From NCBI GenBank assembly GCA_019058365.1, contig JAHPZE010000006.1, positions 96,001-160,000 of the forward strand: 64,000 bases of DNA, read 5' to 3'. Origin of the DNA: Promethearchaeota archaeon. GTDB lineage: Archaea > Asgardarchaeota > Lokiarchaeia > Sigyniarchaeales > SOKP01. The notes beneath the pieces are model-generated. The model saw nothing but the letters and a program-made list of their open reading frames with translations. It was not told the DNA's origin and searched no databases. Shown piece after piece: positions 32,300 to 52,566 of the stretch. Position numbers and translations under genes: made by a program. Numbering within the stretch: the stretch's first letter is position 1; each line of letters starts with the position of its first letter.

Positions 32300-33436
32300 T
32301 CAATCATCCTTACTTGGAATTTTCGGTAATTGTCTTCTACCACTTGGTTTTTTCGCTCTAGATTTTTCTAATATATCAATTAAATCAGCTTTCTTTGTAT
32401 TTATAGGTAAATCAATTTCTTTTTCTTCGGCATAAGCTTTAAGATCTTTTATAGTCATAGAATTAAAATCCGTTATCTCTTTAGGAGTTATAGTTTTCTT
32501 CATTGCATCTGGTTTAGTTGGCATTGGAGACAATCCTGAAGGAGATGTCTTTCTTGGAGCGTTATTTAATTTTTCTTCCTTTTCTAATACTTCAATAGCT
32601 TCCACAATTCCTTTCTTTTCGTCAAAATAAATTCTTAACACATGATTATCTAATTCTATCATTTCTTTTGGGACATTTTTAACTGGTTCCCAGTCGGTTT
32701 CTTCAACATTTTTTCCGAATACTTTAGCAATTTTTGAAACTGCAGCATAGAGTGTATAGCCCAAAATGAGATTTGTTCTTTTATAACCATCAGATACATC
32801 AGTTTTGAGAATTTTATCTTTTATTTTTTGTGCTTCTTCTCCTGATAATTCTATTGCTTTAGAAATTCTTGATGGTTTTACCATTTCTGATCTTGGATAT
32901 TGCGTCCTTGGTTTTGGTTTTAATGTACTCGAAGCGAAAGATGAAACTATTACTTCATTACTCGTATCTTGTAATGCTGGTGAGAAATACTCCTCTTCTG
33001 TCTGCAACTTAGTTGTTTTAGGAGCAACATCTGTAATAGGTGCTTGTTCCATTCTCTCCCGTTCAATATTTCGGACATATCGCATATCTGCTAATCGTTC
33101 AGTTACTTCCATCGATTCTAATCTGAATGTATTTAAGAATTCTGAAGGTTCTTCTCCCGCATCTACAGAAATAATCTTACAACGATGATATCTAGAATCG
33201 TTTATTAATTCTTCTTGAAGAGTTGCAGCTACTCTTGAACTGATAAATCTTTTTCGAACAGGTGATTTTGGACCTTTCCAAATGAAGATCCTTCGTAAAT
33301 CTTCTCTTATTATTACTAAAACTTGTTCTGGATGCATATTTTCCTGAAGATGCTCTTCAGTTATGTCTAATTTTATCCTTTCTCCAGAATCGTCTAATTC
33401 ATATACCATAAATGTCTCATATTCAGTCATTTTCAT
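32300..33436 (-). CDS. Gelsolin-domain protein with a C-terminal HeH/SAP (Rho-N-like) domain
   Basis: N-terminal HPEQVLVII...RIFIWKGPKSPVRKRF...VDAGEEPSEF (gelsolin fold signature); C-terminal FNSMTIKDLKAYAEEKEI....KKADLIDIL. Confidence 0.75.
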   Translation of the reverse strand: MKMTEYETFMVYELDDSGERIKLDITEEHLQENMHPEQVLVIIREDLRRIFIWKGPKSPVRKRFISSRVAATLQEELINDSRYHRCKIISVDAGEEPSEFLNTFRLESMEVTERLADMRYVRNIERERMEQAPITDVAPKTTKLQTEEEYFSPALQDTSNEVIVSSFASSTLKPKPRTQYPRSEMVKPSRISKAIELSGEEAQKIKDKILKTDVSDGYKRTNLILGYTLYAAVSKIAKVFGKNVEETDWEPVKNVPKEMIELDNHVLRIYFDEKKGIVEAIEVLEKEEKLNNAPRKTSPSGLSPMPTKPDAMKKTITPKEITDFNSMTIKDLKAYAEEKEIDLPINTKKADLIDILEKSRAKKPSGRRQLPKIPSKDD

Positions 33437-33643: not shown

Positions 33644-34357
33644 TTATCGATCGTGAAGGACATTATCTATTGATAATACAAATCCTACGAGAATTCTTCG
33701 ATCAGTCTGATTATCAAGTATTCTTAAAGCATATGTATCTTTAAAATCTAAAAGCCCTCCAAGAAAGACATCTCTCCATCGATCTGCTTTTTCTATTTCT
33801 GCTATAACATTACCAGTGGTTACATCATAAACCTTAAAACTCCACCCCATAAACTTGCCTTGAGCACGGAACCATTGGTTTCCTTGAGGGTCTTCAAGAA
33901 AAAACACAGGTCTGAAAAGGGATAAAATCTTCTTCTTAATTCGAGCTATAAGATTCCCTTGAGGATCTTTTAAATCTTGTGCTCCGCGAGCAGATACGAG
34001 TTTAGCATGAATCGTTGCTGCAATAGTTCCATCAACTTCTTGTAATTCAACTCTCCGTCGAATGCTTAAGATTATTCTTTTCATCTTCCCAATAATTTGG
34101 TTATGTTCGTCTAATATGTCGCCGCTTCCCCAATCCCAATACTTCTCCTTAAGGATATAGTAATTCCGGTTGATGTCAAACAATCCTCCTGGTGGGCTTG
34201 AGGGATATACTCTAGGACCAGTTGGTCTTGTTTGTATAGGGGCAGTTTCTACTTGTCTAGTGCTAGCTGCTATAGGTGAACCGCACTTTTCACAGAACCT
34301 TTGAGTTAAGTCGGAAATTTCCGCCCCGCAATTATTACAATATGGCACTTTTCTCAC
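33644..34357 (-). CDS. Zinc-ribbon + LURP-one/scramblase (Tubby C-like) protein
   Basis: YCNNCG..FCEKCG, Pro-rich linker, repeated D-x-x-G-x-x-I-A/G-x-I-K-K strands, DTYALRI, LSID. Confidence 0.82.
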   Translation of the reverse strand: MRKVPYCNNCGAEISDLTQRFCEKCGSPIAASTRQVETAPIQTRPTGPRVYPSSPPGGLFDINRNYYILKEKYWDWGSGDILDEHNQIIGKMKRIILSIRRRVELQEVDGTIAATIHAKLVSARGAQDLKDPQGNLIARIKKKILSLFRPVFFLEDPQGNQWFRAQGKFMGWSFKVYDVTTGNVIAEIEKADRWRDVFLGGLLDFKDTYALRILDNQTDRRILVGFVLSIDNVLHDR

Positions 34358-35310: not shown

Positions 35311-37335
35311 CTAGAATATCTTCTTTTTCCAGTTTTCAATACTTTCGATGATTTCTTTTTTGTCATTCTCATCTAGTAATAAAAACTTTTCCTTGTACTT
35401 ATTTATCGTACTTCTAACACTATGTAAGGTTACTGAAAACCCTTTTTTTTCTAGAATTAAATCAGCAATATCCTGTAATTCTTTACCAAATGCATCCCCT
35501 TTGAGACTACCAAGTTTATCAATTAAATGATCGAAAGCAGTATTTATCTGTATTCCTGCTTCGTCACCTGCTTTAGGTTGTGCTGCTGTTAAAAACTCAA
35601 TTTTTTCTTGGAGTTTCTGCTTTAAATCAGTAATTTTGGGTGAGGAATAAGATGGAACTGGGGTTTGTGAAGGTGAAATCTCCGTAGATCTAATACTCTC
35701 TTTTGGAATTTCTTGAATTTGACTTGGTATTGGAATTGTTGGTTTACTTTCAATTTTGGTTGATTTCAGATCTCCTTTAATCGATTGAAATTTTGCGGGA
35801 ATTATAGGTTTTGCAGCAGTAAATGATTTAATAGGTGTAGTTGTCTTAGTTGCTTGTGCTTTTGTTATTTGAGTAGCATGAAAAGAATCAGTATAAGCTT
35901 CTTCCCATATGTTTTTTATCAACGGATCTAATAACTTTATTAATGGTTTAAATGAAGTTCCGATTCCAATAAAATCATCTAAAGAATTATTTGAATCTTG
36001 GATTACTCCCATTATGAATATATCATTATCACCTTTTAAAATAATAATATTATCATTTTGATAAGTTCTATATACTATATTTTTAATATCATTAAAGCTC
36101 TTAACAGTACTATTTGTATGAGCTTCTGAAGAAGCGATTTTTATTTTTAGATTACTAGCAATTTTATCAAATTGCTCAAGTGTTAAATGGTTTTCAATAT
36201 GGGGGATAATTAACGTAAGAGTTTCTTGAGAATTTATAATAAGATTGTGGATTGATTCATTTACATTAGTGATACTATTTATTATCCAAACATTATTGAA
36301 TAGTTGCTTATCAATCCTATTCATTTCTTTAAGATAATGCTTCATTAAGTCTTCGACAGGTTTATTTAGGTTTGAAACTTGATTAATTGAATTCTGAACA
36401 ATGAGATTTAAACTTTCTTTGATTCTAGCTTCCAGATTCTCAACAGCAGGTAAAAGTTCCTCTTGGTTTTCTTTAAGTAATTCATATATTTTATTCATTT
36501 TAGATTCAAAATTACTCAACATATTCAATAAAAGAATTTTAAAGTCATTTCGGTACTGAAATATAGAGTCTGTAGTATTTTGCATTTGTTCAGCTAAACC
36601 ACCAAATTCTTTTTCAATTAATTCATGCAAATTATTACTAAATTCTCCTATTATTTTATCTAATTTCTCTTTGAATGACTTTTCCACAGCAGCAAGAATC
36701 TCTTCTTTATGTTTTTTAAATTCCATGGAATTAATGTTCTTAATTATATCAATTTTAAGAGTATTAATTGTTTTAATTAAATCAGCAAATTGAGTTTGCG
36801 TAATACTCTTAATATCTTGACGGAGATCAGAGAGAATTTTATTAATTTTTTTTAATTCTTCCATTCCCTCAACAATATCTTCTACTTCTTGTTTTTGAAT
36901 AATGGAATCCTCTTCAATATCTTTTTTAACTGCTTGAAAAGCGTTTACTATTGAATCTAGCTCAATTACCTTATTTTCTTGAAAAATAGTTAATAAGGAA
37001 TTAACCATTAAGTCATAAATTGATTTTTTGATTGTAGGTAAATTTGCTTCAATATTATCATAATAATTGAGAATTGGAGAAATTGGCGGTAATGGTGAAT
37101 AGTGTATTATTTGTTCTTTTTTCTTAGGCTTTTGTTGAATGAGCAAGCCAGCGTCTAAAAGTCCTTTTATGCTTGTATTAAATTCTTCTGGAGTTGCGTT
37201 AGGTATAAGAGTATATAATTCATAAAACGATAAAGGAAATTTACCTAATGATTTAAGATAAATCTCCACGGCATATTCGGGGAGTTGCATTTTTCTTAAA
37301 AACTCTTCCATTAGTTTTTCACCAAATTCTTTCAT
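35311..37335 (-). CDS. TrmB-like wHTH - long coiled coil - PLD-like domain - Pro-rich linker - helical C-terminal domain
   Basis: N-terminal wHTH (EIYLKSL...LLDAGLL...YSPLPP), about 250 aa of heptads, then an alpha/beta domain similar to 996..1796. Confidence 0.55.
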   Translation of the reverse strand: MKEFGEKLMEEFLRKMQLPEYAVEIYLKSLGKFPLSFYELYTLIPNATPEEFNTSIKGLLDAGLLIQQKPKKKEQIIHYSPLPPISPILNYYDNIEANLPTIKKSIYDLMVNSLLTIFQENKVIELDSIVNAFQAVKKDIEEDSIIQKQEVEDIVEGMEELKKINKILSDLRQDIKSITQTQFADLIKTINTLKIDIIKNINSMEFKKHKEEILAAVEKSFKEKLDKIIGEFSNNLHELIEKEFGGLAEQMQNTTDSIFQYRNDFKILLLNMLSNFESKMNKIYELLKENQEELLPAVENLEARIKESLNLIVQNSINQVSNLNKPVEDLMKHYLKEMNRIDKQLFNNVWIINSITNVNESIHNLIINSQETLTLIIPHIENHLTLEQFDKIASNLKIKIASSEAHTNSTVKSFNDIKNIVYRTYQNDNIIILKGDNDIFIMGVIQDSNNSLDDFIGIGTSFKPLIKLLDPLIKNIWEEAYTDSFHATQITKAQATKTTTPIKSFTAAKPIIPAKFQSIKGDLKSTKIESKPTIPIPSQIQEIPKESIRSTEISPSQTPVPSYSSPKITDLKQKLQEKIEFLTAAQPKAGDEAGIQINTAFDHLIDKLGSLKGDAFGKELQDIADLILEKKGFSVTLHSVRSTINKYKEKFLLLDENDKKEIIESIENWKKKIF

Positions 37336-37487
37336 ATGATTCTTATTAATAATAGAGATACTTACCGAACTTATATAATCTTTTAGAATTAAAGAATCTT
37401 TTTTTAAAAATTAAAATATTTAAGGAGGCTTTAACATTATAATCATTAATAATATTATAGATACTCACCGAAATTCATAAAACAGAT

Positions 37488-38828
37488 GTGGAAAAAATGA
37501 CAGAGGATATATATTTTTACTTAGATCTTACTAAAGATTTATTGAGAAAAAAAGAGATCATAAAAACAATTAAATATTACATTGAGGAAAAAAATAAAGC
37601 AAACTTAAAAGGTCACTATTCTCTCTTGATTTTTCAAGAAGAGGGAAATCCAGTCTTTTTAACGGATAAAAAAGATTCTGATATAATTGCCAACTCAATT
37701 GAAGAAAATTGGAATACTCGTCCAAAAGATAAAAGTTATTTTGAAAATGGGTTATTTTACATTTTTTCTTATATTGCTGAGACTGTGAGAAAAAAATCCA
37801 AATTTAATAGAATTATAGTTATTACAGATACGCCATCCGACTTATCTGAAGAATATCAAGAGGCTCTATTTAATTTAGTATCAAAGATAAAGAATTTTCC
37901 CACATTTATAGATATTATTAGAGTATCCAAAGAGGGCGAACGCTTTTTTAAAGATGATGTAAAATTGAATATGCTTGCAAGTGACACTAAGGGAGGAATT
38001 TTTTATATTCAGGACAGAAAAGGCTTCACTGATGTGATTAAGAAACTTGTAAAGACTAAACAATTTGTAACTACATTTGAAGATCAACCTGATCTTATTA
38101 GAATAAGCAAAGAAGATTATGCTTTCTACAGTCAATTAGCAAAATCCTTAATAAAATCTAGTGAATTAAATTTAGTATGTCATTTTTGTAATGAAGAAGT
38201 ATGTCCCGTTTGTATGGATGTTCATGATACTCCGTTGATTTGTGAAGACTGTAATACAAGTTTTCATCATTGTTGTATTACCAATTATGTTATAAATCAT
38301 AATATTGGTATACCTCATATTTTTCGTTGTCCCAATAACGAATGTGATGTGCTTCTTAAAATAGATGAAGATGAGATAATTGAAGTATCAGGAGAAGTAG
38401 AAGTAGGAACGGTAAAGGAATATTTAGAAGAAGAACTACTTCAAGAGTCATTAGAAGAAATTCCCGAAGAAGAAGAACCTAGTTCTATTACACCTACTCT
38501 ACAAAAAATAGAAACTCCGCCAGTAAAAGAAAAAAGTATCTCTGGAGCAAAACAAGTCACAACCATTAGAATTGGTGGATTTTTTGGAAAAGTCTATACC
38601 GTAAAAAAAATGGGAGATAAAATTGTGTACGAGAAGTCTACACAGCCAACTTTTAAACCAAGTGCTGAAACTTCAAAAAGAGGAGAATTTATACTAAAAG
38701 ATACTATAAAACTTACGAGTGAAAAAGCGAGAAAGAAACCAAAGTTTATTATTTGTCCTCAATGTGGAACTCAAAATGATTCTACTCACACCTCGTGTTC
38801 TAATTGTGGAAATAAATTATCATATTAA
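37488..38828 (+). CDS. vWA-like + PHD/RING-type zinc finger + C-terminal zinc-ribbon protein (paralogue 1)
   Basis: FYLDLT, IIVITD, IDIIRV, TKGGIFY (vWA strands); CHFC-CPVC-CEDC-HHCC-CPNNEC; CPQC..CSNC. Confidence 0.7.
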   Translation: MEKMTEDIYFYLDLTKDLLRKKEIIKTIKYYIEEKNKANLKGHYSLLIFQEEGNPVFLTDKKDSDIIANSIEENWNTRPKDKSYFENGLFYIFSYIAETVRKKSKFNRIIVITDTPSDLSEEYQEALFNLVSKIKNFPTFIDIIRVSKEGERFFKDDVKLNMLASDTKGGIFYIQDRKGFTDVIKKLVKTKQFVTTFEDQPDLIRISKEDYAFYSQLAKSLIKSSELNLVCHFCNEEVCPVCMDVHDTPLICEDCNTSFHHCCITNYVINHNIGIPHIFRCPNNECDVLLKIDEDEIIEVSGEVEVGTVKEYLEEELLQESLEEIPEEEEPSSITPTLQKIETPPVKEKSISGAKQVTTIRIGGFFGKVYTVKKMGDKIVYEKSTQPTFKPSAETSKRGEFILKDTIKLTSEKARKKPKFIICPQCGTQNDSTHTSCSNCGNKLSY

Positions 38829-38920
38829 GAAAAAAGCGAAGTTCTATAGTATTTTTATAACATATTCTTTTAATAAAGAAAAAGTAAATCACAATATTGT
38901 TAAAAGAAAAATAACTGATT

Positions 38921-38983
38921 CTAGTATTATCAATAAAAATAAATAAACTGAATCTACTAGTATTATCAATAAAAATAAATAAA
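38921..38983 (+). repeat. 27-bp perfect direct repeat, two copies, period 36
   Basis: CTAGTATTATCAATAAAAATAAATAAA at 38921-38947 and 38957-38983, each preceded by AACTGA. Confidence 0.9.
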
Positions 38984-38992
38984 TGTGCTAAA

Positions 38993-40297
38993 ATGTTACC
39001 ACGATCTTCTAATACGGTAAATTCTGAGGAATTTATTTTTTATATAGACTTAATTACTGATTTCTTGAAAAAGAAACCCTTAGTGAAAGCAATAAATGCT
39101 TTTATAAAAGAAAAAGATAAATTTAATGTTTTAACTTCTTACGGAGTGGTGCTTTTTCAAAAAGATGAGAATCCGATAAATGTTTATGATTTAAAAGATG
39201 TGGAAACCGTTATAAATACCATAAACAATGGATGGGAAACACGAGAAATTGAGAAAAGTTATCTAGAAAATGGGTTATATGAAATACTTGCATATATTTT
39301 TAGGAAAAGCCGTGATACAAGAAAGAATTATCGTATAATAATAATTTCAGATTCCCCTAGCAAATTATCTGAGGATTATTATAATGCACTTTACGATTTA
39401 CTCATTAAAGCAAAAAAATTTTCAGCTTTTATTGACATTATTCGTGTGGGAGAAGAGAAATTTTTTGAAGATGATGTAAAACTTAAAGTTATTTCAAGTG
39501 AAACTCATGGAGGCACATTCTATTGTCAAAGTGATAAACTTCTTCAAACTATCTTAGGTTCTTTGACTCAGAATAAAAAAGAATTCAAAGTTATACTCTC
39601 TGATGAGTCTGAACAAATTTTAAAAGAAGATCAAGTTTTTTATGAACGATTGGCCGTAGATCTCATTAGTCTCTCTACAGATGATCAAGAAATATGTGAT
39701 ATCTGCGAACAAGCGGTATGTCCTATTTGTGAAGCTCATTCTGATGAGATACATAAGTGTTTTAATTGTAACGCTAAATTTCATAGTTGCTGTGCGGCAA
39801 AATATTCCCTTGTTAAGAATATAGGTTTTAAACATCTATTTAGGTGTCCGCAATGTGACACTCTTTTAAAACTAGATGAAGAATTTGTCAATATGATATA
39901 TGATGAAGAGATAGAAGAAGGATTGCCTGAAATAGATTTGGGTGAACCTTTTTCAGAACCTGTCATGGAAGCGCTCGAAGTTCAAGAAGAACTAATAGAA
40001 AAAGTAGAGGAAGAGCCCGTTGAAATACCCGAATCAGCCATACCTACACCAACGAAAAAGGTACGGTTAGGAGGGTTCTTTGGGAAAGATGTTACAATTA
40101 CAACTGGAACTACAAAAGGTGAAGTAGCATTAAAAGTTCCAGAAATTATTAAGTCACCAGAAGAACAAAATGTCTCGATAACAAATTTAAGACCACCAAA
40201 AAGAAGAGGAACTGGAACAATACGACTTTGTAAAATTTGTGGAGCAACGATACATAATACCCGAAATTGTCCAACATGCGGGGCTAAAGCTGATTAG
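38993..40297 (+). CDS. vWA-like + PHD/RING-type zinc finger + C-terminal zinc-ribbon protein (paralogue 2)
   Basis: FYIDLI, IIIISD, IDIIRV, THGGTFY; CDIC-CPIC-CFNC-HSCC-CPQC; CKIC..CPTC. Confidence 0.7.
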   Translation: MLPRSSNTVNSEEFIFYIDLITDFLKKKPLVKAINAFIKEKDKFNVLTSYGVVLFQKDENPINVYDLKDVETVINTINNGWETREIEKSYLENGLYEILAYIFRKSRDTRKNYRIIIISDSPSKLSEDYYNALYDLLIKAKKFSAFIDIIRVGEEKFFEDDVKLKVISSETHGGTFYCQSDKLLQTILGSLTQNKKEFKVILSDESEQILKEDQVFYERLAVDLISLSTDDQEICDICEQAVCPICEAHSDEIHKCFNCNAKFHSCCAAKYSLVKNIGFKHLFRCPQCDTLLKLDEEFVNMIYDEEIEEGLPEIDLGEPFSEPVMEALEVQEELIEKVEEEPVEIPESAIPTPTKKVRLGGFFGKDVTITTGTTKGEVALKVPEIIKSPEEQNVSITNLRPPKRRGTGTIRLCKICGATIHNTRNCPTCGAKAD

Positions 40298-43839: not shown

Positions 43840-46800
43840 ATGAGAAATAGAAAAAATTTTACTGTTATAATATTATTATTGTTATTTCTTCAAACTTTTA
43901 TTGGAATAATACCCCTTAATTTTCTTAATTTTAATGATAAAGAGAGAAATGAAACTCAAAAGATTGATCTTAAATATTCAGATATTATAATTGGAAACTA
44001 CACAGTTCCAGGAGTTTCAAGTCCAGTTTCCCTAAATCACTTAATTAGAATAGGATTGCTAGATGATATGAATGATATTACTGGCGATCACGCTTGGAAA
44101 GGAGCATTATTAGCTGCTAAACACATTAACGAGGCTGGTGGTATTGATATTTATGGGAATGGTACAAATCATTATATAGGTTTGACTGCTGAGGATACAG
44201 ATGAAGCTAACATAGCTATGGATGTATCAAAGGGAGTAGCTGCTGCAAATAGAATGATAACATATAATAATCCCCATTTTATTATAGGAGGATATAGAGA
44301 AGAAGCTGTGTCAGCTTATCAGGAAGTTATAATGGATGCTCAAATCCCTTTTTTAAGTACTGGAGTTTCAACTGATATTTTCACTCAAAATGTCTTGAAT
44401 GATTATGAACGCTATAAATATTTCTTTCGAATCATGCCAATGAATAGTACCTCACTTGGTACAGTACTTATTTATTATTTAGGTTTTCTTTGTACCAATT
44501 TAGGTGCAATTTATGGTGGCACATTGAATAAAGTAGCTATTTTTCGAGAAGATTTACCTTGGACAGAACCATTAAGTAATGCTCTTAATTTAACTTTAGG
44601 AGCTTGGGGGATAACTGTTGTACAAGAAATCGCCTTTCCCATAACTGCAACTTCAACAGATTTTAATACCTATTGGAATATGATTGAAAGTGCGGGTGTT
44701 CAATTAACAATTCCGTTGGTAACGGAGGGTTCTGGTGCAATTAAAATGATACAACAATATAGGGCGGTAAAACCAAAATGTCTCTTAGCAGGTATTAATC
44801 TACTTTCCCAATTAGATACTTATTGGGATTATACTGAAGGTGCATGTCAATATGAAATTACAATGCAAGCTATCCATAGAACCAATAAAACTTTCATGAC
44901 AATCCCGTTCTGGGATAGTTTTGTTTCAGAATATAATATGGAGCCATTTTATACTGGAGTTGGATCCTATGATGCGATACAATTATTAGCAGATGTTTGT
45001 GATGCGATAAATTCATTTAATTCAACTAACATTATTACAGCATTAGAGGGATTTAATAAAACTAACCCTTATGTAGGTATTAGTGCTCAAATAGCCTTTA
45101 CTAGTTCTCACGATTTGTTGGCAGGATATCCTTATGCTTCTACTCTTTTTACTCAATGGCAATTGGATGGAAAAAAAGTCACCATTCCTTCATTTGTCCC
45201 TTCAATCTACTCTGGATATTATCCAAGTTCTCTTTCCACAGGTCAAATTTCAATTCCGTACTGGGGCATTAATAATCTTGTAGCAGCACAGGACTTACCG
45301 GGAGATTTCATTCTAAATGATACTGCTGACTTCCAAGATAGGGATGGTAACTTTAATTTGACTTGGACGAACTCTACTGGTGCCGATAATTATTCTGTAT
45401 ACATGCATGACAAGTCTATTACTTACATAAACGATAACCTTGAACTATTAGCTGATCATAATGCACATTCTTCTTATCAAATTTCAGGATTAAAAACTGG
45501 AAAGTATTATTTTGTTGTAGTGGCGTATAATGGAACCGGTGAAAAATTGTCGAATAATGATGTAATAAATGTAGAACGTCCTAGGCCAGGAAATTTCACC
45601 CTAACTAGTGATGCTGGTAACCCAGATACCGATGGTTCTTTTAATTTGACTTGGACTGATTCAGAAGGAGTAGATAATTATTCTATATTTACTTATAATC
45701 ATTTCATTACTGAGATTAATGAAAGTGTCACTATCCTTGCAAATCAAACAGCAACCTCACCCTTTCCAATCACAGGGTTATCAAGCGGAAATTATTATTT
45801 CGTAGTTATAGCATACAATGCAACTGGAGAAACGATATCCAATAACGTTAATGTAACAGTAAAGATACCTCCGGGACAATTTACATTATCTTCAGATGCT
45901 TATACTCCTTTTGATACCGATGGAGCTTTTAACCTTACTTGGACAGAGTCAACTGTGGCTGATAATTATTCTGTTTATCAGTATTCCCGATATATTACCG
46001 TTATAAATGACAGTCTCATTCCTCTTGAGATCGCAACAAGTAATACATCATTCCAGATTACTTATTTGCCAAGTGGAACTTATTATTTTATTGTTATGGC
46101 AAATAACAGTTATGGCTATAATCTTTCGAATTGTATTAATATAACTATTCAAATTTATGATGAATTAAGTGGTTATTGGATATTAAACCCATTTCTTATT
46201 GATAATACTGGTGTTGGTGATTATACTTGGTTGGAAGTTGCAGCCTTACCATGGTGTAGTGGTTCTGGAACATCAGTTGCCCCTTATATAATAGAAGCTA
46301 TTAAAATTAATGGGCAAAATTCTGGTAGTTGTATTATAGTTCGAAACTCTAGTGTTTACTTTAAATTAAGAAATTGCTCATGTTATAATTCTGGTAATGC
46401 CCTAAATGACGCGGGAATTAAATTAATTAATTTAACAAATGGAATTCTAAAATATATTAATTGTTCTTTTAACGATGGAAATGGAATTCTTTTAGACCTA
46501 TGTCAAAATGTAACCATAACGAGTAGCACTGTTAATAATAATAGTCTAAACGGCATTAAGTTAATAGATAGTGATTACATAAATATTTCGGATAACATGG
46601 ATACAATTAATTGGAATAGCGAGTATGGCATTTCTTTAGAACATAGCGATTATAATGAGATTAGGGGAAATATGATAAATTATAATACAATTGGAGTTTA
46701 CCTTTATGAATCTAACTATAATACTATAACAGATAATGATTTAACAAATAATGATCAACCCTATGAACAAGTAGGTAGTATTGGAAATATTATTCATAGT

Positions 46801-47649
46801 AATCTTGGTGTATCGGAGGAAACACCATTTCCTTTTGATATTTTAATTATCGTTCTGATAATTGGATTAGTAGTTGTTGGAGTTGTAGGTGCTGTATTAA
46901 TAGTAAAGAAGAGAACTTCTACATCCGGATTGAAGAAAAAAGAAATAAGTGAGAAAAAAAGACTAAAAATAAGAAGAAAACTTGAAGCAAAATTAATTTT
47001 TGTTGATGATCTCATAAAGGAGAGAAATATAAAATCGGCTTATAAAAATTTAGGTAAAATACAAGATACAGCTGATCAATATGAATTCTTTGGTATATTT
47101 AATGAAGCAACGGAAAAAATTGAATATTGTAAGGATATTCAACAAGGAATTTATGAAGAAGCTAAGAGGGAGTCTGTAATTACTCCTTTAGTATCAGAAA
47201 GCTTTGAAAAAGAAACTCAGATCGCACCCGTATCAAAAAAAGTAGAAGAACCAACGCACAATATCTTTATAAGTTATTCTACTTTAGACGCAGAATATTT
47301 TCAAATAAATAAAATTGTGAAAAAGCTTAAAAAATATCCTGAAATTGAGAACGTCCTATACTGGGAAAGGGATAGTAAAGAAAATATAGTTGAATTTATG
47401 GATAGAACTCTGAAAGAAAGTGATGTTTTTATCCTCTTTTGCAGTGAAAGATCGCTGAATTCTGCAGCTGTAAGTGATGAGTGGCAGGCAGCGTTTCAAC
47501 GTAGAAAAAAAGGGTTAATTAAAATGATTCCTGTTTATGAAGATGAAAAATATGTTCCCCCAATTTTAGGCCATTTATTAAATGTGAAGTATACAAAAGA
47601 TGATTTTGATAGTTTTATTGAGAAACTTCATCGAGAAATCTTGAGATGA
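43840..47649 (+). CDS. Single-pass receptor-like protein: Venus-flytrap (Liv-type) domain - 3x FN3/Ig-like - NosD-like beta-helix - TM - TIR
   Basis: N-terminal hydrophobic segment; IRIGLL...GALLAAKHINEAGGI...YFFRI...YDAIQLL; 3x PGxFxL..DA..D.DG.FNLTWT.S..ADNYS...YYFxV.A.N; N-rich beta-helix; TM ILIIVLIIGLVVVGVVGAVLIV-KKR; IFISYS...FILFCS..S..S..V.DEW...MIPV. Confidence 0.85.
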   Translation: MRNRKNFTVIILLLLFLQTFIGIIPLNFLNFNDKERNETQKIDLKYSDIIIGNYTVPGVSSPVSLNHLIRIGLLDDMNDITGDHAWKGALLAAKHINEAGGIDIYGNGTNHYIGLTAEDTDEANIAMDVSKGVAAANRMITYNNPHFIIGGYREEAVSAYQEVIMDAQIPFLSTGVSTDIFTQNVLNDYERYKYFFRIMPMNSTSLGTVLIYYLGFLCTNLGAIYGGTLNKVAIFREDLPWTEPLSNALNLTLGAWGITVVQEIAFPITATSTDFNTYWNMIESAGVQLTIPLVTEGSGAIKMIQQYRAVKPKCLLAGINLLSQLDTYWDYTEGACQYEITMQAIHRTNKTFMTIPFWDSFVSEYNMEPFYTGVGSYDAIQLLADVCDAINSFNSTNIITALEGFNKTNPYVGISAQIAFTSSHDLLAGYPYASTLFTQWQLDGKKVTIPSFVPSIYSGYYPSSLSTGQISIPYWGINNLVAAQDLPGDFILNDTADFQDRDGNFNLTWTNSTGADNYSVYMHDKSITYINDNLELLADHNAHSSYQISGLKTGKYYFVVVAYNGTGEKLSNNDVINVERPRPGNFTLTSDAGNPDTDGSFNLTWTDSEGVDNYSIFTYNHFITEINESVTILANQTATSPFPITGLSSGNYYFVVIAYNATGETISNNVNVTVKIPPGQFTLSSDAYTPFDTDGAFNLTWTESTVADNYSVYQYSRYITVINDSLIPLEIATSNTSFQITYLPSGTYYFIVMANNSYGYNLSNCINITIQIYDELSGYWILNPFLIDNTGVGDYTWLEVAALPWCSGSGTSVAPYIIEAIKINGQNSGSCIIVRNSSVYFKLRNCSCYNSGNALNDAGIKLINLTNGILKYINCSFNDGNGILLDLCQNVTITSSTVNNNSLNGIKLIDSDYINISDNMDTINWNSEYGISLEHSDYNEIRGNMINYNTIGVYLYESNYNTITDNDLTNNDQPYEQVGSIGNIIHSNLGVSEETPFPFDILIIVLIIGLVVVGVVGAVLIVKKRTSTSGLKKKEISEKKRLKIRRKLEAKLIFVDDLIKERNIKSAYKNLGKIQDTADQYEFFGIFNEATEKIEYCKDIQQGIYEEAKRESVITPLVSESFEKETQIAPVSKKVEEPTHNIFISYSTLDAEYFQINKIVKKLKKYPEIENVLYWERDSKENIVEFMDRTLKESDVFILFCSERSLNSAAVSDEWQAAFQRRKKGLIKMIPVYEDEKYVPPILGHLLNVKYTKDDFDSFIEKLHREILR

Positions 47650-51648: not shown

Positions 51649-52566
51649 ATGCTAAAAAAAACCATACTTTTTGATTTAACTCACAATGAAATGTTAAATA
51701 TCGATGATGAAGAATTTAAGGAATTCTCAAATCTTCTAAAACGATTAGATGTTAAGATTAAAAAGAATGAGAATGGACATATAACGAAAAACACATTAGA
51801 AAATATTGATCTTGTAATCATTGGTAATCCAATTGATGATTTCTTTTCAAGTTTAGAAATAAAACATGTTGTTGATCATGTGAGAAGTGGAGGGGGGGTA
51901 CTCTTATTGAGTGAATATGGAGCAGATCACCTTCAAAAAACCAATCTAAATGATATTGCTGGAAAATTTGGTATTTTTTTTGAGAAAAATATAATTAAAG
52001 AGATAAATGACAACAATAAAAATTGTTCTAGCATATTACACATTCAGAATTTTTTAAAGCATCAAATAACAAAAAATTTAAGAGAAATAATAATTGGAGG
52101 TGCATGTTCCTTATTTTTAAGTAAAGAAGTAAAGCCTATATTGCAATCAAATGAACGATCTGTATGGTCAGAAGTTTATAATAATGCATCTGAGGAATGG
52201 TCCAAACTAGAGGAAAAACAGTATACTCTTGCAGCATATTCAGAATTTGGTCAAGGAAAAATCATTGCGATTGGAGATATTGATATATTCACTAACAATT
52301 CAAAAATAGGCATAAATTCATTGGATAATCGAAAATTTATTCAAAATATTATTAATTGGTTAATAAATCCTGTTAAGGAATCTAAGGTTAAGTCATTTAT
52401 CCTTAATCAACTTGGTGATCTCCAATATGAAATTAAGGAGACTAACAAAGTATTGAATAATATTATCGAAACTATGACGATTTTAGAAAAACGAATTACT
52501 TATTTGGAAAAAAATTCAAAAGTAGATATGCAACCATCAGATCAAGAAGAAAGTTTTGAAACTTAA
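51649..52566 (+). CDS. GIFT (GldG/IFT52-like) domain + C-terminal coiled coil
   Basis: ILFDLTHNE, LVIIGNP, GGGVLLL, LNDIAGKFGI, GKIIAIGD, DNRKFIQNIINWL. Confidence 0.72.
   Translation: MLKKTILFDLTHNEMLNIDDEEFKEFSNLLKRLDVKIKKNENGHITKNTLENIDLVIIGNPIDDFFSSLEIKHVVDHVRSGGGVLLLSEYGADHLQKTNLNDIAGKFGIFFEKNIIKEINDNNKNCSSILHIQNFLKHQITKNLREIIIGGACSLFLSKEVKPILQSNERSVWSEVYNNASEEWSKLEEKQYTLAAYSEFGQGKIIAIGDIDIFTNNSKIGINSLDNRKFIQNIINWLINPVKESKVKSFILNQLGDLQYEIKETNKVLNNIIETMTILEKRITYLEKNSKVDMQPSDQEESFET

Follow-up and report, generated by a model that had tools for sequence, protein, structure and literature searches.

The combination of a domain of the von Willebrand factor A (vWA) type with a RING finger is typical of eukaryotes, where it occurs in the p44 subunit of TFIIH and in ligases and scaffolds of plants and fungi; the plant RGLG ligases, for example, combine a RING with a vWA domain. 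The fungal proteins Ste5 and Far1 are described as carrying RING, PH and vWA domains (PMC3023161, in its accessible part), and, according to the accessible part of PMC4094531, p44 and p34 are vWA paralogues that pair, the vWA domain of p34 binding the RING of p44 and the vWA domain of p44 binding XPD. It is not settled how the TFIIH core and proteasomal Rpn10 arose. Here we describe two adjacent genes, A and B, in a stretch of 64,000 nucleotides (the window; forward strand, positions 96,001 to 160,000 of contig JAHPZE010000006.1, assembly GCA_019058365.1) from a Promethearchaeota archaeon of the class Lokiarchaeia. Both belong to a Lokiarchaeia-specific family of cytosolic proteins with a vWA domain, a RING and a zinc ribbon, of which they are old and diverged members. 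As to their function, we tentatively favour a quite plausible reading in which they form an adaptor pair resembling RING-type ubiquitin ligases (E3s), probably heteromeric. The features on which the argument rests are given below, in positions of the window.

Gene U, 35311..37335, minus strand: 674 residues, divergent from A; long coiled coil; possible TrmB-like N-terminal winged helix-turn-helix (wHTH).
U/A divergent intergenic region, 37336..37487, no strand: 152 nucleotides, AT-rich; presumably holds promoters.
Gene A, 37488..38828, plus strand: open reading frame of 446 residues; vWA domain, RING, acidic linker, GGFFG beta-hairpin and zinc ribbon.
vWA domain of A, 37500..38057, plus strand: approximately residues 5-190; degenerate MIDAS (metal ion-dependent adhesion site), DLTKD; D114 invariant.
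RING-type cross-brace finger of A, 38178..38345, plus strand: C231-C286; core C4HC3 plus C239/C242/C262.
IRIGGFFGK motif and beta-hairpin of A, 38565..38636, plus strand: residues 360-383; conserved island in a variable linker.
Terminal C4 zinc ribbon of A, 38754..38807, plus strand: C423-C440; Pfam Zn_Ribbon_1, E 2.3e-5, 24.4 bits, cut-off 25.
A-B spacer, 38829..38992, no strand: contains an exact 27-nucleotide direct repeat upstream of B.
Gene B, 38993..40297, plus strand: open reading frame of 434 residues; architecture as in A.
RING-type finger of B, 39695..39856, plus strand: C235-C288; from invariant alignment columns.
VRLGGFFGK motif of B, 40061..40087, plus strand: from the A/B alignment.
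Terminal C4 zinc ribbon of B, 40229..40279, plus strand: C413-C429; from the A/B alignment.

A first, sequence-only reading of this DNA had proposed two adjacent, co-oriented and diverged paralogues. The two open reading frames lie exactly where it had placed them, and their products align from end to end with 36% identity (BLASTP, E 3e-82). Every motif that it had listed was found in both proteins, namely SYFENGL/SYLENGL, FIDIIRV, FFKDDVKL/FFEDDVKL and IRIGGFFGK/VRLGGFFGK, together with a Cys/His cluster (CxxC-x4-CxxC-x9-CxxC-x4-HxCC...RCP) and a terminal CxxC-x9/10-CxxC. The true start of A is probably the ATG at 37497 and not the GTG at 37488, because the database protein identical to A has 443 residues. 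The ratio of nonsynonymous to synonymous substitution rates, from one comparison with the closest congener, is 0.18 for A and 0.21 for B, and both are therefore real genes under purifying selection. The window is AT-rich (GC 0.25-0.35). In the spacer, the two copies of the 27-nucleotide repeat (38921-38947 and 38957-38983) are set 36 nucleotides apart and end 10 nucleotides before the start codon of B, an arrangement that resembles a small duplication within the presumed promoter or leader of this gene. A scan for sigma-70 promoters, whose model is unsuited to archaea, gave 13 sites against 17.4 in shuffled sequence.

The N-terminal domain of A is predicted to have the vWA fold, as had been proposed. 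An AlphaFold2 model computed from a 63-row alignment (mean predicted local distance difference test (pLDDT) 83.3, predicted template modelling score (pTM) 0.70) places in order an alpha/beta domain at residues 1-190, a helix at 208-217, a zinc domain at 231-291, two helices, a disordered acidic stretch, strands at 358-383 (pLDDT 62-81), a second disordered stretch and a ribbon at 420-444. Residues 10-190, which form a central sheet flanked by helices, have pLDDT above 90. We compared the model with 48,161 chains using VIA-align. The best 50 matches of the vWA domain were vWA chains (Z 14.5-19.7, 159-191 residues aligned), headed by p44 (8ebs_E, Z 19.7, root-mean-square deviation (rmsd) 3.2, 188 residues aligned) and followed by Ssl1 (4wfq_A, Z 19.1; 7o4i_6, Z 18.7), ArnB (8s05_B, Z 18.5) and Rpn10 (8amz_W, Z 17.8), with ordinary vWA domains filling the remainder of the list at Z 14.5-17.6; Sec24 and Sec23/24 scored 16.1-16.6. 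Foldseek also placed p44 chains first (1.9e-9), then Tfb4, Rpn10, integrin I domains and MERIT40, while the family profile searched against PDB sequences matched Rpn10 (3.1e-5), Tfb4 (6.4e-5) and MERIT40 (0.011). Taken together, the structural and profile matches point to p44, Ssl1 and Rpn10 as the nearest solved relatives of this modelled domain, by a small margin, the advantage of p44 over generic vWA domains in VIA-align being only about 2-5 Z units.

Pfam recognises this domain poorly. VWA and VWA_2 did not match A at all, VWA matched B below its cut-off (E 0.0049, 17.6 bits, cut-off 23.8), and the gathering score of either model was reached by 4 of the 63 family members plus the paralogues E and F described below. 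The sequence-only reading had noted the lack of a canonical DxSxS MIDAS, and the corresponding columns indeed read DLTKD in A, DLITD in B and GLTPE in the paralogues C and D, but the first Asp of the site is retained in A and B and the Asp of strand beta4, D114, is invariant in all 63 aligned members. DLSGS is still present in some single-copy relatives, and a fully canonical MIDAS in one of the 63 (P0248).

The zinc finger that follows is, as read from the alignment, a C4HC3 cross-brace with eight ligands. Seven of them (C231, C234, C252, C255, H260, C281 and C286) are invariant among the 63 members, and position 263 is Cys in 57 and His in 6. The spacing is C-x2-C ... C-x2-C-x4-H-x2-C ... 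C-x2-C. The accessible part of a review gives C4HC3 as the type of prokaryotic RINGs (PMC11354881). An additional CxxC pair, C239/C242, is found in A, in B and in the relatives nearest to them; C262 is present in 23 of the 25 members with this pair versus 3 of the 38 without it, and because of this co-occurrence the three cysteines probably form a third zinc site. When the finger was folded alone (residues 198-302 of A, 29-row alignment; pLDDT 86, pTM 0.76), its best 50 VIA-align matches were all RING or U-box domains, in keeping with the RING-like nature suggested for it from the letters. FANCL came first (Z 6.7, rmsd 2.4, 60 aligned) and Listerin next (Z 6.4; rmsd 2.2-2.4 and 57-60 aligned for both), with HOIL-1 (6.3), Tfb3 (4.9) and the C-terminal RING of p44 (4.8) lower. 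Pfam Prok-RING_1 matched 21 of the 63 members at E <=0.01 (best 1.9e-6). Positions 233, 267 and 282 of the finger, which we take to correspond to those by which known RINGs contact ubiquitin-conjugating enzymes (E2s), are hydrophobic in 60/63, aromatic in 60/63 and Pro in 29/63, respectively.

Beyond the finger, the GGFFG hairpin stands out from the linker: identity among A orthologues is 68% across it, against 30% and 20% in the flanking linkers, and the motif persists as G(F/L/Y)FG in single-copy relatives. The terminal CxxC...CxxC is present in 46 of the 63 family members. The RING is more conserved among B orthologues (88% identity versus 71% among A orthologues), and the hairpin less so (52%), an asymmetry of constraint that fits, as far as identities can tell, a division of labour after duplication.

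A search of 1.84 billion representatives gave 135 cluster representatives at E <=0.001. The named relatives are all proteins of Lokiarchaeota/Promethearchaeota metagenome-assembled genomes, labelled 'hypothetical', 'RING finger protein' or 'VWA domain-containing protein'. In a sample of 301 genomes from across the phylum, in which the window genome is G000 of taxonomic family f1, the protein family profile matched 77: all 68 of f1 (G000 not counted), all 7 of f2 and the only one of f6, which belong to the same class, and none of the 224 genomes of other families. Members also occur in families f3 and f4, which belong to the same order. Within this sample the protein family was found only in the Lokiarchaeia-type class. 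In the papers searched we found none describing it, although supplements, for instance lists of Asgard eukaryotic signature proteins, could mention these genes; a paper on Asgard and TFIIH concerns, in its accessible part, RAD25 only (PMC9258230). Four long members (P0218, P0220, P0230 and P0234, about 1100 residues) have the vWA-RING-ribbon module in their first 440 residues or so, followed by about 650 residues without a recognisable domain, and P0231 is a patatin phospholipase fused to a vWA domain. The C-terminal 660 residues of P0218 (1113 residues) gave Atlas scores of at most 0.78 and nothing solid in Pfam, and hence no fusion clue to function.

In the phylogeny, A orthologues form a clade with 100% support (12 rows, 8 genera), as do B orthologues (10 rows, 7 genera). 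The duplication is therefore old, going back to the common ancestor of these 7-8 genera of one taxonomic family or further. A, B, the single copies of f2 and of genus g13, the f4 members and the paralogues C and D all fall inside one Lokiarchaeia-only tree, placing the duplication within Lokiarchaeia. In a first, smaller tree A and B were sisters and the single copies of f2 lay outside them (85/82). This placement, with single copies predating the duplication, is not secure: approximately unbiased tests leave both A+f2 (p 0.136) and B+f2 (p 0.212) standing, and in the larger tree A, B, f2, g13 and f4 form a polytomy.

The window genome holds six family members, A and B plus four others on further contigs:

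C and D, tandem pair, contig 16, L003:1480-2646 and L003:2778-3920: 388 and 380 residues.
E, contig 26, L035:2613-3818, plus strand: 401 residues.
F, contig 16, L036:1822-3000, minus strand: 392 residues.

Neither C nor D has the GGFFG motif or the additional CxxC pair. The tree joins them as sisters (100/100), which points to a duplication independent of that of A and B. E and F have a canonical MIDAS (DTSRSM) and pass Pfam VWA (E 9.4e-16), VWA_2 and Ssl1 (38.6 and 36.1 bits, cut-off 27), and their RING is followed by a second RING-like finger instead of the linker and ribbon. Their distribution in the sample of 301 genomes coincides with that of the family profile, covering the same 77, among them G003, the sole congener without A, B and a U orthologue. 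A search with E returned 350 matches, and most of the 120 matches listed have exactly 401 residues, with 59-100% identity. By BLASTP, B matches E at 1e-9 and C matches E at 6e-11, and an hhalign comparison of A/B-type with E/F-type alignments gave a probability of 99.96% over 282 columns, with the caveat that P0248 is in both alignments; on these comparisons the two types are homologous over the vWA domain, linker helix and RING. Searched singly against the PDB, E finds human p44 best (8.2e-7) and then Rpn10 (6.5e-5). The E/F profile ranks Rpn10 (4.6e-15) and the bacterial vWA protein 4rck (8e-15) above p44 (2.1e-11), and the profile link is therefore to the Rpn10/p44/Bat-type vWA clade generally, not to p44 specifically. 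In a whole-genome search at E <=1, Ssl1 (PF04056, cut-off 27 bits) matched only E (40 bits) and F (37.8 bits), leaving A and B unmatched, and Tfb4 (PF03850) also left them unmatched, its sole match being E (weak, 14.4 bits). By these searches E and F are better p44/Rpn10-like candidates than A and B.

A and B have stayed together, so that the pairing seen in the window is conserved. Each of the 23 congeners with an A gene has a B gene as well, next to it and on the same strand in 22, the exception being split at contig ends; U is adjacent and divergent to A in 22 of the 23. Eight other genera of f1 supplied 16 further loci: 11 hold U, A and B together, in one the contig with the A-B pair is too short for U to be visible, two have U and A without an adjacent B, and two have a g13 single copy without an adjacent U orthologue. 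The tandem A-B is thus present in 12 of these 16 loci, and U lies beside A in 13. The co-oriented tandem beside a divergent U has been kept across at least 7 genera. As for U itself, the nearest Atlas clusters, from Promethearchaeota, carry a TrmB wHTH in 25-33% of their members, while Pfam found no domain in U, and no TrmB or wHTH match either at the N-terminus of U or in three U orthologues; the TrmB link is a lead only. A defence-system reading was dropped, as PADLOC gave no match for A, B or C and U has only weak matches of coiled-coil type to ZorA. NCBIfam returned nothing useful.

The surroundings of other family members differ. In f2 (L024-L028, genera g2 and g9) the single-copy homologue lies, in 5 of 7 loci, divergent from the gene of a Ras-family GTPase (about 196 residues), which is followed by an actin gene (about 377 residues, Pfam Actin 1e-78 to 5e-83), and E is divergent from a Gtr1/RagA-Arf-like GTPase gene (L035:1182-2390). 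Such adjacency could be due to chance or could reflect a link to GTPase or cytoskeleton biology. The f2-type actin/GTPase neighbourhood is absent from the window genome.

On the reading that we favour, A and B would serve as an adaptor resembling RING-type ubiquitin ligases and would probably work as an A-B hetero-oligomer. A host UBC-type E2 charged with a ubiquitin-like protein would be brought in by the RING, the metal-free face of the vWA domain would dock a partner, a substrate or the RING of the partner subunit (as p34 vWA does on the p44 RING), the GGFFG motif and the ribbon could supply further contacts, and U may be a regulator of A and B or a third subunit. The idea of a heteromer comes solely from the co-retention of the two genes and from the analogy with the p34 vWA-p44 RING contact as given in the accessible part of PMC4094531. 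In favour of it are the shared architecture and vWA fold, the RING ligands together with the conserved E2-contact-type positions, the RING and U-box matches of the finger, the ubiquitin genes of the host, the co-retention of A and B, and their asymmetric constraint. The genome has two UQ_con (E2) genes and three ubiquitin-like genes, on contigs other than that of A and B.

Several observations weigh against this. Every VIA-align match of the finger has a Z below 8 and Foldseek found none for it at E <=0.001 (best E 0.075), so the fold evidence for a RING is consistent but weak. Pfam zf-C3HC4_2 scored only 14.5 bits on A (E 0.032, cut-off 27), and in the sequence-profile search the finger matched a PHD finger best, that of MTF2 (1.9e-5). 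Many active RINGs have a 'linchpin' Arg directly after the last zinc ligand; in none of the 63 members is this position Arg or Lys. The genes near A and B include no E2, E1 or ubiquitin-like gene; they are unrelated housekeeping genes, such as those for a CDP-alcohol phosphatidyltransferase, a small membrane protein and an aminotransferase. Finally, Asgard ubiquitin systems have been reported more widely than in one class, while the present family was found in one only.

Some of these points would be accommodated by a non-catalytic scaffold, which we consider possible but rather doubtful. Here the finger would be a protein interface only, as is the C4C4 RING of p44, and A, B and U would form a structural or regulatory complex, without ubiquitin transfer, serving transcription, chromatin or another assembly. 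The contacts of p34 vWA with the p44 RING and of p44 vWA with XPD, described in the accessible part of PMC4094531, offer a precedent; the tie between U and A, seen in 22 of 23 congeners and at 13 of the 16 further loci, the TrmB wHTH in the clusters nearest to U, the missing linchpin Arg and the lack of ubiquitin-system genes nearby are all in keeping with it. Conversely, the Pfam searches of U and its three orthologues gave no wHTH, the E2-contact-type positions of the RING are conserved, and the structural neighbours of the finger are mostly catalytic E3 RINGs.

An unlikely alternative is that the finger is of PHD type and that A and B are readers, recognising a peptide mark, a lipid or a nucleic acid and tethering it via the vWA domain. 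In the PHD finger consensus the C4HC3 spacing goes with an aromatic residue that stands two places ahead of ligand 7, and such a residue is found here (F279 in 54 of 63 members). The top profile matches include, besides MTF2, the PHD fingers of PHF1 and DPF3, and Pfam PHD matched 11 and C1 5 of the 63 members. Yet C4HC3 RINGs also score in the same sequence search (FANCL 7.8e-4, the RING-CH of Doa10 0.0043), and only PHF7 among the best 50 structural matches is named a PHD finger, the rest being RING or U-box domains; PHF7 is itself an E3, in complex with an E2.

It is also improbable, slightly more so, that A and B are adaptors of membrane traffic or the cytoskeleton, of the ArnB and Sec23/24 type (vWA plus zinc ribbon), working with small GTPases. 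The ArnB match (Z 18.5) and the Sec24 and Sec23/24 alignments, which extend into residues 366-427, suggest it, as do the Ras-family GTPase and actin genes beside the f2 homologue in 5 of 7 loci, the GTPase gene beside E and a gelsolin-like gene 4 kb upstream of A. In ArnAB, moreover, a zinc ribbon docks on the vWA protein (PMC12852372, accessible part). The model of A, however, shows no beta-sandwich or helical domain of the ArnB/Sec23 type, and only three strands (358-383) outside the vWA domain and RING, and the 172-186 residues aligned amount to the vWA domain alone. None of the six actin genes of the genome lies near A/B or C/D. Small GTPases are very common in Asgard genomes, and a GTPase gene may plausibly lie next to a family member by chance.

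Finally, that A and B represent p44 and p34 of TFIIH in archaea and work with XPD/XPB helicases, as the sequence-only reading had considered, is very improbable: what stands is that the vWA fold is nearest to p44/Ssl1, that the family profile matches Tfb4 at 6.4e-5 and that the genome has an XPD-type helicase gene, but this gene lies on another contig, no Tfb2/p52 was found in the genome, the Ssl1 and Tfb4 Pfam models miss A and B while Ssl1 matches E and F, the fingers differ from those of p44, the family is found in one class with the A/B split inside its Lokiarchaeia-only tree, and even the E/F profile favours Rpn10 and a bacterial vWA protein over p44.

Other genes of the window include the following.

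Gelsolin-like candidate, 32300-33436, minus strand: 378 residues; Pfam Gelsolin repeat 0.0011 (weak), HeH/SAP/Rho_N 2e-4 (weak).
Zinc ribbon plus LURP-one-related/scramblase-like (tubby-like) protein, 33644-34357, minus strand: 237 residues; LOR 4.5e-9, ribbon N-terminal.
Membrane TIR protein, 43840-47649, plus strand: 1269 residues; C-terminal cytoplasmic TIR domain, TIR_2 9.3e-16.
Match to the IFT52 GIFT domain, 51649-52566, plus strand: 305 residues; 7.9e-12, below the whole-protein cut-off of the model.

The first of these, 4 kb upstream of A, is possibly an Asgard gelsolin-like protein with a DNA-binding tail. The TIR protein also has a periplasmic-binding-protein domain, fn3 repeats and a NosD/beta-helix region.

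An Asgard class has 3 to 7 vWA-RING genes per genome, among them a strictly conserved pair and two core members that are p44/Rpn10-like in sequence. This protein set bears on whether RING adaptors that dock substrates were already part of Asgard ubiquitin systems, and on whether the vWA-RING pairing of TFIIH has archaeal roots. The boldest proposal, which we put forward as a long shot, is that the Lokiarchaeia vWA-RING superfamily, with E/F as its universal core and A/B and C/D as derived pairs, could be the surviving archaeal stock of the cytosolic vWA modules of eukaryotic TFIIH p44/p34 and Rpn10, and that A-B with U would be a heteromeric RING ligase displaying a pre-eukaryotic pairing in which a vWA domain binds a RING.

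Among described systems, A and B resemble ArnB/ArnE of Sulfolobus and the Sec23/24 core in that the archaeal proteins have a vWA domain and act with a zinc ribbon; unlike A in its model, ArnB has beta-sandwich and helical domains, and its MIDAS is retained (PMC12852372, accessible part). The same part of that source names plant WAV3 as a structural look-alike of ArnB. Like WAV3, the RGLG ligases and Ste5/Far1, to which they are likened by description only, A and B join a RING and a vWA domain in one cytosolic protein, and they differ from all of these in domain order and accessory domains. The C-terminal RINGs of FANCL and Listerin share the C4HC3 ligand order of the finger and are its best structural matches, and FANCL appears in its profile search too, but scores are low, A and B have the additional CxxC and Cys insertion and no linchpin Arg, and the surrounding domains are unrelated. 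Rpn10/PSMD4 is the best sequence-profile match of the family vWA domain (3.1e-5; 4.6e-15 with the E/F profile) and a close structural one (Z 17.8); unlike A and B it has no RING or ribbon, and a Pfam scan of A and B at E <=1 gave no match to its ubiquitin-interacting motif, a short motif of a kind easily missed. With p44 (GTF2H2/Ssl1), the best structural match of the vWA domain of A, they share the succession, in a cytosolic or nuclear protein, of a vWA domain and zinc fingers, one of them RING-like. The order of these fingers differs, as had been noted from the sequence: A and B have one C4HC3 finger and a distal ribbon, p44 a central C4 finger and a C-terminal C4C4 RING (PMC4094531, accessible part). 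Unlike p44 and p34, A and B also have an acidic linker and the GGFFG motif and stem from a duplication internal to Lokiarchaeia, and it is their paralogues E and F that stand closer to p44.

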